5,088 nt of DNA. Origin: an uncultured Bacilli bacterium. Lineage in GTDB: Bacteria; Bacillota_I; Bacilli_A; RF39; UBA660. Below the pieces are notes generated by a model. It was given only the letters and a program-made list of their open reading frames with translations. It was not told the DNA's origin and made no database searches. The position numbers and the translations under genes are program-made. Positions 1-5,088 of the stretch are shown here, piece after piece (positions within the stretch are counted from its first letter, which is position 1; each line of letters begins with the position of its first letter). The stretch is taken from positions 1 to 5,088 of the forward strand of contig CAJTSN010000027.1 of the NCBI GenBank assembly GCA_910578745.1, given 5' to 3'.

Positions 1-176
1 CCCCTAAATTTGTCAAGATAAAAAGTGGTTATACTAGAATAAATTGTTACAGTTTACGATTGATATAAAAATTTATAAAATTCGAATATTCAATAAATCA
101 CGAATCATAAACTACGACAGAATTGTTTTACAATAAAATGAATGTTGTATAAAATTGTTCCACGCCAAAAAGAAGC

Positions 177-199
177 AAAAAAAATCGCATTTCTGCGAT
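177..199 (-). terminator. Rho-independent terminator-like hairpin, strongest on the minus strand and possibly bidirectional
   Basis: ATCGCA-TTTC-TGCGAT (184..199) forms a perfect 6-bp stem with a 4-nt loop. On the minus strand it is followed by a T run of 7-8 (A run 177..184 on the plus strand). On the plus strand it is followed by GATTTTATT. It lies ~280 nt downstream of the stop at 481. The stem is short, so confidence is moderate. Confidence 0.45.
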
Positions 200-480
200 G
201 ATTTTATTACGAATTTTCAAAATCTATAATAGTCATTTTCTTTATAAAATAAGGAATAAAACGTTTACTGTTCTATCAAAATGTAATGATATTAGGAATA
301 TTTAGTTCGTTTAGGTACTATTCCCTTTTTATTGTATGAGATCTGTTTCATCTATATACATTGTACTCGATTTTTTTATGCTATGCAAGTTTCCGATTTG
401 GACAGATTTTGCTTATGAAAATGCTAGGTTATTCTAGAAATTTTTATTTTGATAAATTCATTCACATACCCTTTAAACGA

Positions 481-1764
481 CTATTTTTTATCTTCTAAAA
501 TATATACATTTCCTGGATTGATTTGGAAAGCGTCCTCATAAATAATCCAATCCGTAACTTCCCCTATTTTGTAGAAACCTTCATCTCCTTCATGCATATT
601 TTTTACATGATAAGGTTCCTGTAAAAGCTTACAGTGTAATTTTCCTTCCTTTATTTCTAAAAGTTCAAACCAAATGTGTTCTAAATGATCCTCATCCGCT
701 TCCTCTGTCTGCAATCCAATTTTAACAATCACTTGATTTTTCTTATTTTTAAGTGCTTCTTCCACATAAGAAAATCTTTCAATAGCAAGGGATTTCATTC
801 GATCTGTTTCTTCATTACTCAAAAAGAAGATTGGATTTTCACCCCATAAATCATTATACACAGAAACTTTGCTTAAAACTTGTTTTTTCTCATCTTCTTC
901 ACTTTGATAAATAAAAATTAAACTTGTTTTACTATTATGACCTGTTTTACGGTCCTCTAAATTACCTAGCTTCAATTTTTTATATTCATGCAAACCCAAC
1001 GTCCAAGAAATGCAAGTAGCAACGACAGGTTGTCCGTTATTTAATAGACCAATATAAATTCCTTCTTCTGGAAAATGGGTTTCATTCTTTTTATCTAAAA
1101 GATAACTTGCAAAAGTGGCTATCAAATTATAATGATTATTGTAATTTTCTGTATCAGATTCAAGAATTTCTAATTCTGTTAAACCACAACGACATAATCC
1201 ATGCGTATGCAACCAAACCTCCCCATTTTTACCTGATACTGCTTGTACAGTATATAAATCATTCGCACTTGGATATACTTCTGTACGAATTGACATTCGA
1301 ACCCAATTCGCTGGCAATAATTTTTCTGCACTTTCATCCATTACAGCCAATAAATTTGGCATGATCGCATGTATCAGTTTTAATTGGAGATGAAAGGACT
1401 TTTTTGCATTCTCATTAAATTTCATATAGATAGTAAGAGCAATTTTTGTATTTTTTAACTTTTCAATATCTTCTGCTTTAAAAAAATAAGTAGGTAAAAC
1501 ATAATAATCTTCAAAATGAAAATTCGTTGGGAAAAAACCGACCTCAAATTCTTCTGCCTTATAACGTATTTTCATATACCCATCCGCTTGATCACTCATA
1601 TCTCTCTTCTCAAGAATTTCTACTCCAGAAATAGTCTCTACACGGTCAAAAATGCCTTCTAAAGGATTCTCCTCTTCATGTTCTGGAATTGCTAACATGT
1701 AAGATTTTTCCTCCCAATATCCCAAAGGTGCTTCTGTATATGATACTTTCGTTTTTTTAAACAT
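481..1764 (-). CDS. Uncharacterised protein resembling DUF4026 (central WLHTHGLCRCGLTELE block) with a C-terminal DUF2314-like domain
   Basis: 427-aa ORF with a perfect AGGAGG RBS and its own promoter. The C-terminal EHIWFELLEIKEGKLHCKLLQEPYHVKNMHEGDEGFYKIGEVTDWIIY matches my recollection of the DUF2314 pattern (E-h-h-W-h-E ... G-x-L-x-N/Q-x-P ... G-D ... DW). The central GEVWLHTHGLCRCGLTELEI block matches my recollection of DUF4026. I saw no signal peptide, transmembrane segment or known catalytic motif. The family assignment is from memory and was not searched. Confidence 0.55.
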   Translation of the reverse strand: MFKKTKVSYTEAPLGYWEEKSYMLAIPEHEEENPLEGIFDRVETISGVEILEKRDMSDQADGYMKIRYKAEEFEVGFFPTNFHFEDYYVLPTYFFKAEDIEKLKNTKIALTIYMKFNENAKKSFHLQLKLIHAIMPNLLAVMDESAEKLLPANWVRMSIRTEVYPSANDLYTVQAVSGKNGEVWLHTHGLCRCGLTELEILESDTENYNNHYNLIATFASYLLDKKNETHFPEEGIYIGLLNNGQPVVATCISWTLGLHEYKKLKLGNLEDRKTGHNSKTSLIFIYQSEEDEKKQVLSKVSVYNDLWGENPIFFLSNEETDRMKSLAIERFSYVEEALKNKKNQVIVKIGLQTEEADEDHLEHIWFELLEIKEGKLHCKLLQEPYHVKNMHEGDEGFYKIGEVTDWIIYEDAFQINPGNVYILEDKK

Positions 1765-1771
1765 ACTTTTG

Positions 1772-1777
1772 CCTCCT
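1772..1777 (-). promoter_or_regulatory. Shine-Dalgarno site for the DUF4026/DUF2314-like gene
   Basis: The minus strand reads AGGAGG, followed by a 7-nt spacer and then the ATG at 1764..1762. Confidence 0.75.
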
Positions 1778-1798
1778 CGTATTTATTTTTCTACATTT

Positions 1799-1827
1799 AT
1801 CATACAAAAAAAATGTCTTTTTTTCAA
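1799..1827 (-). promoter_or_regulatory. Candidate sigma-A-type promoter for the DUF4026/DUF2314-like gene
   Basis: The minus strand reads TTGAAA (1827..1822), a 17-nt spacer, then TATGAT (1804..1799). This lies about 35 nt upstream of the ATG at 1764. Confidence 0.5.
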
Positions 1828-1849
1828 GTCATTTTCTTTTAAAGCCTCC

Positions 1850-1858
1850 ATTATAACA
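1850..1858 (-). promoter_or_regulatory. Alternative extended -10 element (TGTTATAAT) upstream of the same gene
   Basis: The minus strand reads TG-T-TATAAT, a perfect extended -10. There is no recognisable -35 at 17-nt spacing (GCGTGT). Confidence 0.3.
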
Positions 1859-2033
1859 AAACAAATCCAGAGACACGCCTTCATTTTTTCTCTTAAATGC
1901 ATCCTCATTTCTATTCATATACTTTGTCCTATGTACAGTTAAACCTACTTTTTTATAAAAAAGATACCTCTATCTGAATTACTTCCTTATTCCTCTATTT
2001 TCAATCGTATTTACTCAAACTTCTAATCGTTAC

Positions 2034-2795
2034 TCAATTTAACGATTTAGAATCATAAATAAAATGATAAGGATATCCTCTTTTATCTATATTATCTAAG
2101 TTCAAATTTAGTTGTTTAGCTAATTCAAGTAATTTATCATATTCTTCCATAATAGAAGTATCGTAGTTTTTTACTTCTATTTCTATGAAATATCCCAAAT
2201 TTTGAACATAATCAAGGGCAATTTCATACTTATTAAGATAGAAATATGTTTTCCTTATTTTATTTACAATTGCTATGATTTCTAAATCTAAAACTTTAAA
2301 AATCTTATCTAAATTTTTCTCATCATCTACTTCAACCTCATATTCATCACAATACTTATTATCATACCATTTTTTATAATTCACTATTTTTTTATTTCCC
2401 CTTACTCCAATTCTTAGCCATTCATCAATACTTTCATTATCACTTTTTAAAAATTTTCTATAAGTAGGTTGATAATATTGGTCGACCTGTCTACTTTCAT
2501 TCAAAAATACAGCACACTTTTTCATAAATGATTCTATAGTTTCAAATTCTTCTTTTGAAAGTCTTACCTTTATTTCTGTTTCAATATCACTTTTTTCTAT
2601 ATCCCCGTAAATAAGATAACTTATACTACAAGAAAATAATTCACTTAATTTCATTAGCACCTCTAAACCAGGCTCTGTTCGATTCAACTCCCAACTTGAT
2701 ACCGTTTTATCAGTTACAAAGATTTTATCTGCCAACTCCGTTTGTGTCCACTTCTTCCTTTTCCTTAAATCCGCTATTCGTTCACCTAAATTCAT
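2034..2795 (-). CDS. XRE-family HTH fused to a CYTH domain (CyaB-like class IV adenylate cyclase / triphosphate tunnel metalloenzyme fold)
   Basis: The ORF track gives 2034..2804, but codon 1 there is GTG. I favour the ATG at 2795 (MNLGERIADLRKRKKWTQTELADKIFVTDKTVSSWELNRTEP...), which is a canonical XRE N-terminus preceded by GAGGTG. The C-terminal ~180 aa carry the CYTH charge pattern: ETEIK, the ExExK signature (track aa 75-79, nt 2568..2582, verified); QVDQYY; LRIGVRG; NYKK; EYEVEV; KIRKTY; ALDYVQNLGYFIEIEV (FIEIEV at nt 2172..2189, verified); and a GYPY tail. Confidence 0.8.
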   Translation of the reverse strand: MNLGERIADLRKRKKWTQTELADKIFVTDKTVSSWELNRTEPGLEVLMKLSELFSCSISYLIYGDIEKSDIETEIKVRLSKEEFETIESFMKKCAVFLNESRQVDQYYQPTYRKFLKSDNESIDEWLRIGVRGNKKIVNYKKWYDNKYCDEYEVEVDDEKNLDKIFKVLDLEIIAIVNKIRKTYFYLNKYEIALDYVQNLGYFIEIEVKNYDTSIMEEYDKLLELAKQLNLNLDNIDKRGYPYHFIYDSKSLN

Positions 2796-2801
2796 TTTCC
2801 T

Positions 2802-2807
2802 CACCTC
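2802..2807 (-). promoter_or_regulatory. Shine-Dalgarno site for the HTH-CYTH gene
   Basis: The minus strand reads GAGGTG, followed by a 6-nt spacer and then the ATG at 2795..2793. This RBS lies inside the first codons of the ORF-track model, which starts at GTG 2804. That placement argues for the ATG start. Confidence 0.6.
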
Positions 2808-2830
2808 TTAAATTAATGATACCATAGTAT

Positions 2831-2883
2831 AGATTCAATCGTTCTCTACATTTTGTAGAATAATAATTTGATCTATTGAATCT
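2831..2883. repeat. Nested inverted repeats (operator-like) overlapping the HTH-CYTH promoter
   Basis: The outer repeat is a perfect 9-bp inverted repeat, AGATTCAAT (2831..2839) and ATTGAATCT (2875..2883). The inner repeat is a perfect palindrome, TCTACA-TTT-TGTAGA (2845..2859). The inner palindrome sits immediately downstream of the putative -10, at the predicted TSS. The right outer arm abuts the putative -35. Confidence 0.45.
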
Positions 2884-2888
2884 TTCAC
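2860..2888 (-). promoter_or_regulatory. Candidate sigma-A/sigma-70-type promoter for the HTH-CYTH gene
   Basis: The minus strand reads GTGAAA (2888..2883), a 17-nt spacer, then TATTAT (2865..2860). The predicted TSS near 2853 gives a ~58-nt leader to the ATG at 2795. Confidence 0.4.
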
Positions 2889-2911
2889 TTATGAAATAAT
2901 CGATTTTCCAT

Positions 2912-2951
2912 AAAAAAAACATCGAAATTATTTTGAATATCAATGTTTTTT
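2912..2951 (-). terminator. Possible weak intrinsic terminator downstream of the HerA/XRE operon
   Basis: The minus-strand RNA would read ACAUUGA-(14-nt loop)-UCGAUGU, a 7-bp core stem including one U-G wobble, followed by a U run (A run at 2912..2919 on the plus strand). Flanking A/T runs can extend the stem to 2914..2925 / 2940..2951. The stem is AT-rich and the loop is large, so predicted stability is low. Confidence 0.3.
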
Positions 2952-3025
2952 ACAGAAATACCTTAGAGTTCATTTCATTTTTTAACAATTCCACCTTATA
3001 GTAATCCAGATTTTTTCAAAAAAAT

Positions 3026-3292
3026 CTATTCTTCCCTTAAAAAAGCATCTAAAGGTTTTTCAAAAAGAATACTGAACTTTATAAGAAGTTTTAAAGAACA
3101 ACTTTTTGTCAAATCGTTAAAAGACTCAATTCTTCTTAAATAGTCATAAGAAATATCTAATCGTTCGGCTACTTCCATGCCCGAAAGTCCACTTTCCCTT
3201 CTAAACTTCTTTATATTCTTATAAATAATGGGCATATAATCCCGATGCAATTGCTCTTTTTTTGTATCCATAAGAAAATTTAAGCCTTCCAT
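3026..3292 (-). CDS. Small XRE-family (HTH_3-like) DNA-binding protein, likely translationally coupled to the HerA-like gene
   Basis: 88-aa ORF. IYKNIKKFRRESGLSGMEVAERLDISYDYLRRIES...LKLLIKFSILFEKPLDAFL fits the Cro/C1/XRE helix-turn-helix pattern. The ATG at 3292..3290 overlaps the HerA stop (3280..3282) by 13 nt. The start is uncertain: an in-frame ATG at 3271..3269 (MDTKK...) is an alternative, and neither has a strong SD. Confidence 0.7.
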   Translation of the reverse strand: MEGLNFLMDTKKEQLHRDYMPIIYKNIKKFRRESGLSGMEVAERLDISYDYLRRIESFNDLTKSCSLKLLIKFSILFEKPLDAFLREE

Positions 3293-5031
3293 CTCGCTTC
3301 TACATCACAGTTACTGCTATGTGGTGGTGGAGCAGGTGGATCCATTTTTATAATAATAGGAATTCGAAAAGCCTTACCAAATCCTACACAAGTACCAGGT
3401 TGTAAACTTTTTTGTTTTTCAATAATTTCTTGATTAATATTGGGAAGCATTTTTGCAATATAATCTAAATCTCTTGGATGATTCATTTTAAAAATTAAAA
3501 AATTAGAACACTGTGAAATAACGGTTTCTGAAATTTCAACTGGTCTTTGCGAAATTAAATTGAAAACCAATCCATATTTTCTTCCCTCTTTCGCAACTCG
3601 ATCAAAAATATTATAACCAAGTAAAAATTTATCATTATCATTTTGAACATAACGATGTGCTTCTTCTAAAAAAATATGAAATGGAATAGAGGCTCTCACT
3701 TTTAAAGATTTCGTAAACGTAAATAACATTTTTGTATAAATTTTCGTAATCACTTTTGCAATACGATCCTCAATATCCTCCAAATTAAAGTTAATAATCT
3801 GTGCTTTTTTCCCGGGTGCATAAGTAACAAGAGAAGCTATATAATTTTCTAAAGTGATATATTGTGGGTAATGAAAATACTTTGCATTTTCGCCAATCAC
3901 AATCGAATGGAGTCTTACCTTTAAAGCAATTGCTTCACTATATGTTTTCTGGTTTCTTAAAAGACCTTCTGATATTAAAGTAAAACTTAAGGCTTTTTCC
4001 AAATCTTCTAAAGTAAAATAATGACTTTCTTTTGCTTCATATTTATCTAAGCTATCATCAATAAAATCAGAAATATATTGTGTAACTAAAATACTTTCTG
4101 TAAAATTTCCTTCTTTATCGATAATAAAACAATCTCTAAATTTACGAACATAGCCAATTCCTTGTACAGGAGCCTCTAAATTAAACGCTTCTGTCGAACA
4201 AGTGGCAAGGATAGAAAAAATATCATTTCTCTTTGCTGTTGCACTTTGATTTGTATATAAAATTGTCATAATTGCCTTTGCAATTAAATGATTTTTATAA
4301 TTAACAGACATTTCATCTGATTCAGAGAAAATTCGTACCAATTTAAGCATTTCTTCTATAATCGGTAATTGCGAATGATCGGTTGCATCTAGTAATAAAG
4401 CCATATCATCGACATCTAGAAGCCATAAAGGAATAGAAAGCAAATTCCCTTCTGTATCATTTACATTGGTCGTATAGTATTTAAAATAAAAATTGGGATT
4501 GATTTTATTAATATCTCGAAAAGCTGTATGGTATTCACCATATGCATCAAAAATAAAAAAATTAGAACGAATTGGAACTACATTTTTGTTTGTAAACACA
4601 TTCTGCATCAACCTTGCAAGTCCCCAAGATTTACCACTTCCTGTATTTCCAAAAATAGCAGAGTGATTCGAAAACATATCATTTACATCAATATAAAGGG
4701 GAAAATCATTATAAAGAGGCGATCTTCCTATTAACATACTACTTTGCGTTTCTCTTCCGACAATCAGTCCAAATTCCTCTTCTGTAATGATACGAACATT
4801 TGCAGATAAACTTGGTTTACGAATGACACCACCTAAAAAACGGTTATTTTGAATTTCTCCTAAAAAACGAACTTTAATGAGTTCCATATCCATATCTTCA
4901 ACTTCACCAATAATTTTCTTTTTGTTGTCCTCAAAGACAATATGCATATTCATCATATCTTGCGCTAAAACATTACCTTCTATTTTGATATGTGCTACAT
5001 TATCAGATATATATATAATTTTACCTATCAT
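3280..5031 (-). CDS. HerA-like / DUF87-family P-loop ATPase (FtsK-HerA superfamily) with an N-terminal barrel-like domain
   Basis: 583-aa ORF with a good RBS. Walker A GNTGSGKS is at aa 128-135 (nt 4627..4650, verified by back-translation). Walker B FHIFLEEAH is at aa 451-459 (nt 3655..3681, verified). NLISQRP...VISQCSNFLIFKMNHPRDLDYI at aa 491-525 matches the arginine-finger/sensor block typical of HerA/DUF87. The N-terminus MIGKIIYISDNVAHIKIEGNV... resembles a HAS-barrel. About 315 aa separate Walker A from Walker B, implying a large insertion. I saw no transmembrane segment. Confidence 0.85.
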   Translation of the reverse strand: MIGKIIYISDNVAHIKIEGNVLAQDMMNMHIVFEDNKKKIIGEVEDMDMELIKVRFLGEIQNNRFLGGVIRKPSLSANVRIITEEEFGLIVGRETQSSMLIGRSPLYNDFPLYIDVNDMFSNHSAIFGNTGSGKSWGLARLMQNVFTNKNVVPIRSNFFIFDAYGEYHTAFRDINKINPNFYFKYYTTNVNDTEGNLLSIPLWLLDVDDMALLLDATDHSQLPIIEEMLKLVRIFSESDEMSVNYKNHLIAKAIMTILYTNQSATAKRNDIFSILATCSTEAFNLEAPVQGIGYVRKFRDCFIIDKEGNFTESILVTQYISDFIDDSLDKYEAKESHYFTLEDLEKALSFTLISEGLLRNQKTYSEAIALKVRLHSIVIGENAKYFHYPQYITLENYIASLVTYAPGKKAQIINFNLEDIEDRIAKVITKIYTKMLFTFTKSLKVRASIPFHIFLEEAHRYVQNDNDKFLLGYNIFDRVAKEGRKYGLVFNLISQRPVEISETVISQCSNFLIFKMNHPRDLDYIAKMLPNINQEIIEKQKSLQPGTCVGFGKAFRIPIIIKMDPPAPPPHSSNCDVEARWKA

Positions 5032-5039
5032 TCATGTAT

Positions 5040-5046
5040 CTCCTTC
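5040..5046 (-). promoter_or_regulatory. Shine-Dalgarno site for the HerA-like gene
   Basis: The minus strand reads GAAGGAG, followed by an 8-nt spacer (ATACATGA) and then the ATG at 5031..5029. Confidence 0.7.
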
Positions 5047-5088
5047 TTATAAAATTTCTTCTATTTTTTCTTTTAATTCTTTCTCTTG
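5047..5088 (-). CDS. 3' end of an upstream gene truncated by the window edge. It is the candidate partner or effector of the HerA-like ATPase. Product unknown.
   Basis: The reverse complement of 5088..5047 reads CAA GAG AAA GAA TTA AAA GAA AAA ATA GAA GAA ATT TTA TAA, which translates to ...QEKELKEKIEEIL*. The stop at 5047..5049 directly abuts the HerA RBS, leaving a 15-nt gap to the HerA ATG. A second reading frame is also open over these 42 nt, so the frame assignment is tentative. Confidence 0.3.
   Translation of the reverse strand, partial: QEKELKEKIEEIL

Follow-up and report, generated by a model that had tools for sequence, protein, structure and literature searches.

Several bacterial regulators, among them BirA, NadR and NrtR, join a helix-turn-helix (HTH) to an enzyme or enzyme-like domain, and the occupancy of that domain by substrate or product sets DNA binding, often with autoregulation. 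For the CYTH domain, whose fold is that of the triphosphate tunnel metalloenzymes (TTMs), Vogt et al. 2021 derived three determinants of cyclase activity from structures and a family-wide network (PMC8233210). Class IV adenylate cyclases (AC-IV) have the motif HFxxxxExExK, replace the first Arg of the xRxR strand by a small residue and carry ExA instead of ExE on the last strand (PMC8233210). In phosphohydrolase-type TTMs, the second Glu of ExE binds metal 2 and the conserved Arg contacts the gamma-phosphate (PMC8233210). SaTTM is a dimeric triphosphatase acting on inorganic tripolyphosphate (PPPi) and nucleoside triphosphates (NTPs), which makes no cyclic nucleotide and whose tunnel closes in the product state, whilst in thiamine triphosphatase (ThTPase) W53 stacks on the thiazolium ring (PMC8233210). 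Here we analyse a 5,088-nt stretch of DNA from an uncultured Bacilli bacterium (GTDB lineage RF39, UBA660; assembly GCA_910578745.1, contig CAJTSN010000027.1, positions 1 to 5,088), referred to as the window, and within it a gene that encodes an XRE-type HTH fused to a CYTH domain, the HTH-CYTH protein. Our best reading, to which we give a probability of about 60%, is that this protein is a single-gene, autoregulated regulator that responds to a triphosphate ligand and is also a triphosphatase.

Both halves of the fusion, first proposed from the letters of the window, matched their Pfam profiles above the cut-offs. HTH_3 was found at residues 10-64 (E 6e-14, 52.2 bits against a cut-off of 23, profile positions 1-55 of 55) and CYTH at residues 74-244 (E 1.4e-17, 64.6 bits against 23.2, profile positions 2-179 of 179). 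These Pfam limits are in the numbering of a 256-aa translation; all other residue numbers refer to the 253-aa protein, in which the residues previously called E75 and E77 are E72 and E74. The very short linker noted earlier was confirmed, with about 9 residues between HTH and CYTH, and the confidence of the structure model is lower in this region (residues 61-70; block mean predicted local distance difference test, pLDDT, 73). The AlphaFold2 model, built with 44 orthologues (pLDDT 86.6, predicted template modelling score 0.80), consists of five helices, which fall in residues 3-63, followed by a beta-barrel. When this model was compared with the PDB by Foldseek, a check suggested together with the original prediction, the CYTH fold was supported. 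The best match was Sulfolobus SaTTM (7nsf; template modelling score, TM, 0.80, E 3e-13), with Pyrococcus CYTH proteins at a TM of about 0.80, the Yersinia class IV cyclase at 0.70 and thiamine triphosphatases at about 0.5. Sequence search with phmmer gave SaTTM (7ns8) at 7e-14 and Yersinia AC-IV at 0.04.

Conservation was assessed in an alignment of 44 orthologue sequences of 62-94% identity. All of the charged motifs that the sequence-only reading had listed (ETEIK, WLRIGVR, NYK, DEYEVEV, KIRK, ALDYV and FIEIEV) were found. In agreement with the intact charged tunnel that it described, 15 tunnel residues are invariant across the orthologues: E72, E74, D105, Y107, R128, R132, K141, E151, E153, K179, R181, E191, D195, E205 and E207. 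K76 of the ExExK hallmark varies between Lys, Arg and Asn. In the HTH, the invariant columns are Q18, K30, S34, E36, R39, T40 and P42, and the recognition helix, DKT(V/I)SSWE, changes hardly at all across the HTH-CYTH family. The closest solved sequence to the HTH is the P22 C2 repressor (1.5e-9). Because the tunnel residues are invariant and the recognition helix nearly so across orthologues, these alignments indicate that the HTH-CYTH protein is under purifying selection.

The sequence-only reading held that sequence alone does not separate a cyclase from a phosphohydrolase, a view contradicted by the determinants of Vogt et al. 2021. We checked these determinants by aligning the family with the PDB-verified sequences of Yersinia AC-IV and human ThTPase. 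The HF motif is absent: where AC-IV has SEHFVGKYEVELK, the HTH-CYTH protein reads IEKSDIETEIK, with I66 and E67 at the His and Phe positions. On the Arg strand the HTH-CYTH protein has DEWLRIGVRG, with R128 invariant, against ISMVLRE in AC-IV, where V61 takes its place; cyclases have Val, Cys or Leu where the HTH-CYTH protein retains R128. The last strand reads FIEIEV in the HTH-CYTH protein and FIEIEG in SaTTM, against FAEIAI in AC-IV. The sequence features of a phosphohydrolase, by comparison, are present in the HTH-CYTH protein, namely the ExE pair E205/E207 and R128. Because HF is missing and both R128 and ExE are present, these residues indicate that the CYTH domain is a phosphohydrolase-type tunnel, closest to SaTTM and not to CyaB.

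In public databases the protein goes by 'predicted adenylyl cyclase CyaB' or 'class IV adenylate cyclase', because it scores above the cut-off of the NCBIfam cyaB model TIGR00318 (68.1 bits against 57.95). This model evidently also takes in non-cyclases, and at the level of individual residues its score is outweighed by the three determinants. The HTH-CYTH family is probably mislabelled in databases as adenylate cyclase. A class IV (CyaB-type) adenylate cyclase tethered to DNA and making cyclic AMP would agree with the TIGR00318 score, with the public names and with the fold (TM 0.70 to Yersinia AC-IV). We nevertheless consider such an enzyme improbable, as all three published determinants point away from it and the similarity to AC-IV is marginal (E 0.04) next to the 7e-14 to SaTTM, maker of no cyclic nucleotide.

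The Arg strand also bears on the nature of the ligand. It reads DEALRLRN in SaTTM, DHWLRRRE in human ThTPase and ISMVLRE in AC-IV, and W126 of the HTH-CYTH protein aligns with Ala54 of SaTTM and with W53 of ThTPase. R128 aligns with ThTPase R55, whilst the position of the second ThTPase Arg is occupied by G130, R132 following two residues on; the full W-L-R-I-R motif is present in divergent fused members. Trp or Tyr is found at the W126 position in 49 of 54 standalone relatives, and the Trp is thus not special to the fusion. W126 may be taken as a hint of a ligand with an aromatic group, not as evidence for thiamine triphosphate. With a conserved Trp at this position, bare tripolyphosphate would be a less likely ligand than a triphosphate with an organic part, for which an NTP and thiamine triphosphate are examples.

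Upstream of the gene we found a conserved palindrome by aligning the 110 nt before the start codon in 81 orthologues. It is present in 73 of the 81, the bases of its half-sites are invariant in 72-73 of these 73, and the window holds one exact copy. An extended -10 element follows, with the form TGnTATAAT in orthologues and the TG extension in 61 of the 73. Counted from the centre of the palindrome, the first -10 base comes after 31 nt in 59 of the 73 and after 30 nt in a further 7, whilst the 23-nt spacer between palindrome and -10 is unconserved in sequence and holds no recognisable -35 hexamer. Between -10 and ATG there are 13 to 23 nt, depending on the orthologue. Because this length varies, with indels occurring nearby, while the distance from centre to -10 does not, the alignment indicates that operator-to-promoter spacing is held constant. 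If transcription starts about 7 nt after the -10, the palindrome would be centred near -43 relative to this predicted start.

Base changes within the palindrome are uncompensated, with G>A at position 10 occurring 8 times and T>C at position 9 occurring 9 times whilst the partner positions are invariant. Since changes in one half-site are never compensated in the other, this pattern indicates that the palindrome is a protein site and not an RNA hairpin, and no riboswitch or other RNA element was found upstream in Rfam. We infer that it is the binding site of the protein's own HTH dimer. The target that had been suggested for electrophoretic mobility shift assays, an inverted repeat with arms at 2831-2844 and 2870-2883, did not survive comparison. 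Even the nearest species lacks it, and 31 inverted repeats of comparable quality, this one included, occur in 1.3 kb of this AT-rich DNA; the conserved palindrome at 2845-2859 sits between its arms. The accompanying suggestion of ligand-controlled transcription stands in part: it is plausible and now has a conserved operator at the gene's own promoter, whilst binding of that operator and its coupling to a ligand are still what we infer.

From these features we propose the following mechanism. The HTH-CYTH protein is very likely dimeric, since its closest relative SaTTM and the class IV cyclases are dimers. Its two HTHs would read the two TCTACA half-sites at its own promoter, centred about 43 bp upstream of the transcription start. 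The CYTH tunnel would bind a triphosphate-bearing ligand with a divalent metal and, in the clade of the window, would hydrolyse it. Operator binding or the contact with RNA polymerase would then change with the occupancy of the tunnel by its ligand or with the product state, in which the SaTTM tunnel is closed. In this way the amount of enzyme made would track the substrate level, giving a loop of sensor, regulator and effector in one gene. Such a single-gene homeostat fits the absence of a conserved partner gene. The fixed spacing and the missing -35 would favour a stereospecific contact with RNA polymerase, i.e. activation, and we place this slightly ahead of repression. Most XRE autoregulators repress, and an extended -10 promoter needs no activator.

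A more specific form of this proposal is a tentative one. The protein could belong to an undescribed class of one-component regulators in genome-reduced gut Bacillota, in which contact with RNA polymerase at -43 would be switched on a timer set by the binding and hydrolysis of an organic triphosphate, be it an NTP, thiamine triphosphate or a related alarm metabolite. If true, this would provide a transcriptional read-out for a triphosphate metabolite for which, to our knowledge, no bacterial sensor is known.

To compare catalytic residues, 16 fused sequences (the window protein and 15 fused 50%-identity representatives) were set against the 54 standalone relatives. At least one of the metal-binding acids E72, E74, E151 and E207 is lost in 5 of the 16 fused sequences and in 0 of the 54 standalone ones (Fisher p = 4e-4, phylogeny ignored). 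By contrast, the phosphate-binding residues K141, K179 and R181 are kept in 16 of 16 fused sequences. The acid-losing lineages (representatives P0128, P0138, P0157, P0162 and P0207) may be non-catalytic sensor versions. Because acids are lost in some fused lineages while the basic residues persist, the comparison points to ligand binding as the function common to the fused family. In the window's own clade hydrolysis is probably retained, because the catalytic set is intact there.

Further copies of the operator were sought in about 12 kb per genome, which is <1% of each genome and roughly 0.57 genome-equivalents in all. With at most one mismatch allowed, the palindrome occurred 67 times at the start of the HTH-CYTH gene and 8 times elsewhere in 0.99 Mb of orthologous loci; 3 of these 8 stand at the head of longer operons whose last gene is a divergent orthologue (L084 and L092). 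Across 1.25 Mb of fetched loci, the same threshold gave no convincing second intergenic site.

An exact 17-mer, CTCTACAAAATGTAGAG, was observed beside a tRNA gene at L111 821-837 (and also in L126, L157, L176, L179 and L201). tRNA-Glu ends 13 nt before it, and a gene for a 126-aa membrane protein begins 34 nt after it; a U-run follows, and the distance to a TATACT box, from which the mRNA would be leaderless, is 32 nt. The organism is related to that of the window (L157 has 66-74% nucleotide identity with L010, a locus from the window's species). This copy could be a second operator or a coincidence, perhaps simply a terminator.

Several observations weigh against a regulator of this kind that acts as a triphosphatase on its own promoter. 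The loss of acids in some fused lineages shows that the family, taken as a whole, can do without hydrolysis. The structure model is a monomer. The second Arg of xRxR is an invariant Gly, with an Arg two residues later, and phosphate contacts may differ from those in characterised enzymes. The operator search bounds additional perfect sites at about five or fewer per genome, which leaves room for a wider regulon. Finally, an exact 17-mer scan of metagenome contigs defined no regulon: it gave 117 matches, mostly chance, of which 1 was upstream of an HTH-CYTH gene and most others were intragenic or in high-GC contigs.

These points bear on a rival reading, namely a ligand-sensing transcription factor with a wider regulon. 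Here the CYTH domain would be mainly a triphosphate sensor, hydrolysis would be irrelevant or would reset the switch, and the gene's own promoter would be one of several targets. The acids lost in 5 of 16 fused representatives with basic residues kept, the exact 17-mer between tRNA-Glu and the membrane-protein gene at 32 nt from its TATACT box, and the coverage of <1% of each genome all leave space for it. On the other side, the catalytic residues are invariant in the window's clade, an argument that the chemistry has been kept; the 0.99 Mb of loci yielded no second good site; and the tRNA-adjacent copy has a U-run after it and may be a terminator. Taken together, we regard the wider regulon as unlikely but deserving of serious attention, and we retain the autoregulated triphosphatase as the preferred reading.

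The features of the locus are collected in Table 1. The window has a G+C content of 29%, and its minus strand carries four consecutive genes. An open reading frame (ORF) at 2034..2804 on the minus strand had been taken as the HTH-CYTH gene; the frame exists, and the GTG start at its head is probably not the one used. The true start is probably ATG 2795, giving 253 aa, and not the in-frame GTG at 2802-2804, giving 256 aa, because this GTG lies inside the ribosome-binding site GAGGTGAGG, orthologues begin with MNLG and public contigs record the exact 253-aa product, on 60 blocks, but not the 256-aa version. At the ribosome-binding-site position, orthologues have GGTGAT or AGGTGA. A fold of 1930-2045, examined for a terminator 3' of the gene, was no better than shuffled sequences, and the 269-nt downstream gap is the sole basis on which we suggest that HTH-CYTH is transcribed alone.

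Table 1. Positions of the HTH-CYTH gene, its motifs and control elements, and neighbouring features in the 5,088-nt window.
Feature	Position	Strand	Basis or remark
HTH-CYTH coding sequence (253 aa + stop, start ATG 2795)	2034..2795	-	ORF list; public record; orthologue starts
XRE/Cro-C1 type HTH domain, residues 7-61	2613..2777	-	Pfam HTH_3
Linker IYGDIEKSD, residues 62-70	2586..2612	-	Domain limits; joins HTH to first tunnel strand
CYTH / triphosphate tunnel metalloenzyme domain, residues 71-241	2073..2585	-	Pfam, phmmer, Foldseek
ExExK hallmark, E72-T-E74-I-K76	2568..2582	-	Without His-Phe four residues upstream
W126-L-R128-I-G130-V-R132 strand	2400..2420	-	Gatekeeper Arg kept; second Arg shifted two residues
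E205-I-E207, last tunnel strand	2175..2183	-	Both metal-binding Glu kept; cyclases have ExA
Ribosome-binding site AGAGGTGAGG upstream of ATG 2795	2799..2808	-	Read from sequence
Extended -10 TGgTATCAT (hexamer 2821..2816, TG 2824-2823)	2816..2824	-	Upstream alignment
Candidate palindromic operator TCTACA-N3-TGTAGA, 15 bp, centre 2852	2845..2859	.	Upstream alignment
A-tract / hairpin / U-tract, terminator-like, after 88-aa gene	2905..2958	-	RNA fold
HTH protein, 88 aa	3026-3292	-	ORF list; overlaps HerA stop codon by 13 nt
DUF87/HerA-like ATPase, 583 aa	3280-5031	-	ORF list and Pfam
DUF4026/DUF2314 protein, 427 aa	481-1764	-	ORF list and Pfam

A survey of the architecture and its neighbours, which had also been called for, found the fusion in uncultured gut Bacillota, in surroundings that are not conserved. 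A word-indexed search returned 480 clusters, and all of the best 120 of these 480 have the fused architecture. In a scan of one genome per GTDB species, HTH-CYTH was found in at least 186 species, nearly all of them metagenome-assembled genomes (MAGs) of uncultured gut Bacilli, 'Tenericutes' or Erysipelotrichales type, together with a few Clostridia. An exhaustive search of 50%-identity representatives gave about 15 fused clusters, and the nearest standalone relatives are CYTH proteins of ~190 aa with 35-45% identity. When the ORFs of 80 orthologous loci were clustered for conserved neighbours, the largest neighbour cluster covered only 8 loci. The functions of the neighbours are unrelated, and include a glycosyltransferase, an ABC transporter, a histidine kinase and an aminopeptidase among others. 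In the literature searched, we found no paper describing an HTH-CYTH fusion or a CYTH-based regulator.

Some divergent orthologues, at 42-48% identity, have a different arrangement (L084 7383-7995; L092 6264-7974; L089 32-1050). There the palindrome heads a longer operon, in which small ORFs precede the HTH-CYTH gene. The product of one such ORF is 150-192 aa long with zinc-ribbon-like motifs (CxxC...CxKCGL), and the ORF overlaps the HTH-CYTH start. None of these small ORFs matched a Pfam family.

The sequence-only reading also tied the gene to the adjacent HerA module and to nucleotide signalling or depletion during infection. Neither link is borne out by the family. Among the loci compared from 80 other species that carry the HTH-CYTH gene, 54 have enough upstream sequence to show HerA; it is near the gene in 1 of the 54, and its presence in the window is incidental. 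Across all 80 loci, the HerA-like gene, the 88-aa HTH gene and the DUF4026 gene accompany HTH-CYTH solely in the closest relative (L015). Searches of viral contigs, PADLOC, PHROGs and structures gave no family link to phage or defence: there was no relative among 2.9 million viral contigs, viral structure matches covered the HTH or the CYTH part and never both, and the matches in PADLOC and PHROGs were confined to the HTH part.

The HerA-like ATPase has its own conserved context. Its homologues, 72-100% identical and of a constant 583-587 aa, occur in many gut Bacilli MAGs, and the gene is always found directly after ftsY, a small ORF and ylxM (L212-L215 6001-7764 and the window). The position in the ftsY/ylxM region is usually held by ffh in Firmicutes. 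In diverged genomes, where the HerA protein has 72-77% identity, the gene is followed by neither the 88-aa HTH gene nor HTH-CYTH. No defence partner (Sir2, DUF4297 or nuclease) adjoins it, its neighbours being ylxM upstream and the 88-aa HTH gene downstream. PADLOC HerA models match the ATPase (best 354 bits), whilst the NCBIfam HerA_antiphage models reach 147-171 bits against cut-offs of 800-850. From this conservation, the HerA-like ATPase is best described as a conserved chromosomal gene of the ftsY-ylxM operon and not as part of a defence island, and it may have a housekeeping role tied to that operon.

Between the HerA-like operon and HTH-CYTH lies the terminator-like element of Table 1. 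An RNA fold of 2895-3030 (minus strand) gave a total of -22 kcal/mol with a z of -1.55, which is modest support for a terminator. A consensus terminator scan found none at 2905-2958, because the stem is AT-rich. With the same modest support, this element and the gene's own promoter would separate the HerA operon from the HTH-CYTH unit.

That the HTH-CYTH protein serves HerA-based anti-phage defence as an accessory regulator or effector is a very improbable explanation, and the comparative data largely refute it. It drew on the adjoining HerA-like ATPase and small HTH gene, on the best PADLOC HerA score of 354 bits and on CYTH domains that are known fused to CARF/SAVED domains and in jumbo phages. 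Set against these are the single HerA in 54 loci, the position of the ATPase as a slowly evolving gene after ftsY-ylxM without a Sir2 or nuclease partner, its best anti-phage HerA score of 171 against 850 bits, the terminator-like element and separate promoter between the two units, and PADLOC matches of the HTH-CYTH protein confined to its HTH.

Loose synteny was seen around the 43%-identity orthologue of L085 (5091-8735), where the HTH-CYTH gene comes after ftsY, ylxM, a 73-aa ORF, ffh and a Dam-like methyltransferase gene. This order hints at an ancestral association with the ftsY/ylxM region, with variable insertions (HerA and the 88-aa HTH gene in the window; Dam in L085). The 88-aa HTH protein is found in the window species and its closest relative only and is absent after HerA in diverged genomes; it matches HTH_3 weakly and the PADLOC model 'HTH_VI' at 34 bits. 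A variable spot outside the window, about 7-10 kb upstream, distinguishes strains whose HerA proteins are identical (L008 93-3105 against L009 1-3105). There, some strains have a 340-aa reverse-transcriptase (RVT_1) gene and then a variable ORF (645 aa in L008; 75-81 aa plus the 536-aa ORF in L011, L012 and L014), and other strains have 194-aa and 536-aa ORFs adjoining ftsW.

The HTH raises one further alternative, in which the protein would be the immunity-type repressor that a prophage or integrative element carries, and CYTH its sensor domain. Its closest similarities are to P22 C2, to ICEBs1 Xre-type repressors and to phage repressor PHROGs, and the operator geometry resembles that of lambda OR2/PRM. 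This origin is nonetheless highly unlikely, given that no relative lies on the 2.9 million viral contigs, that viral structures never cover both domains, and that the gene sits in housekeeping neighbourhoods without integrase, phage genes or a conserved neighbour.

Two other observations concern the downstream side of the gene. The 427-aa protein encoded at 481-1764 combines DUF4026_N, DUF4026_C and a C-terminal DUF2314, and it adjoins HTH-CYTH in the window species only; nothing in NCBIfam, PADLOC or PHROGs matched it. L010 and L008, which belong to one species, diverge by up to 6-10% of nucleotides over 12501-13250 (roughly 1780-2530 of the window), against 1-3% in flanking genes. This stretch takes in the C-terminal half of the HTH-CYTH coding sequence together with the spacer that follows it. 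Its amino-acid changes are concentrated in residues 138-180 and leave the tunnel residues untouched, and the pattern suggests a recombined allele.

A CYTH domain wired to a DNA-binding module, together with a sharply defined operator, offers a direct handle on the ligand sensed in vivo. The analysis also corrects a systematic 'CyaB adenylyl cyclase' misannotation in at least 186 species of uncultured gut Bacillota, and removes as unfounded the tempting idea that the family is tied to phage defence of the HerA type. The principle of placing a sensor domain of enzyme origin on an HTH is well known; its CYTH version is new relative to the literature searched.

Among described proteins, SaTTM (Saci_0718 of Sulfolobus acidocaldarius) is the closest solved relative, at about 32% identity (E 7e-14, TM 0.80), and is grouped with the Pyrococcus CYTH proteins PH1819, PH1012 and Pfu-838710. 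The HTH-CYTH protein and SaTTM have in common ExExK, DxY, the Arg strand and the last-strand ExE. SaTTM differs in being a standalone protein of about 180 aa without a DNA-binding domain, in having Ala at the family's invariant Trp, and in its canonical second Arg, where the window clade has Gly and then an Arg two residues later. CyaB, represented by Yersinia pestis AC-IV (PDB 3n0y/2fjt), belongs to the same superfamily and has the same fold (TM 0.70). Unlike it, the window protein lacks HF, keeps ExE and the Arg by which the substrate orientation of a cyclase is blocked, and has an N-terminal HTH in addition. Mammalian ThTPase (PDB 3tvl, 5a64) resembles the window protein in the aromatic residue at the W53 position (W126), the first Arg and ExE. 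The differences are an identity of 13-19% and a TM of 0.5, the displaced second Arg of the window clade and the lack of a DNA-binding domain in ThTPase.

In regulatory logic the HTH-CYTH protein would be like BirA, NadR and NrtR, whose effector folds (biotin ligase, NMN adenylyltransferase and Nudix, respectively) are unrelated to CYTH. For promoter geometry, the nearest parallels are lambda cI at OR2/PRM and the ComR/PlcR-type activators, in which a palindrome centred near -42/-43 abuts the place where a -35 is missing and keeps a constant distance to the -10. ComR and PlcR, as RRNPP regulators, are moreover controlled by a C-terminal ligand-binding domain. The window protein has an XRE-type HTH like those of lambda cI, P22 C2 and ComR/PlcR, and the same palindrome geometry at its promoter. 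It differs from them in carrying a CYTH tunnel at its C-terminus, in place of an S24 peptidase-type or TPR domain, and in having a single operator rather than a tripartite one.

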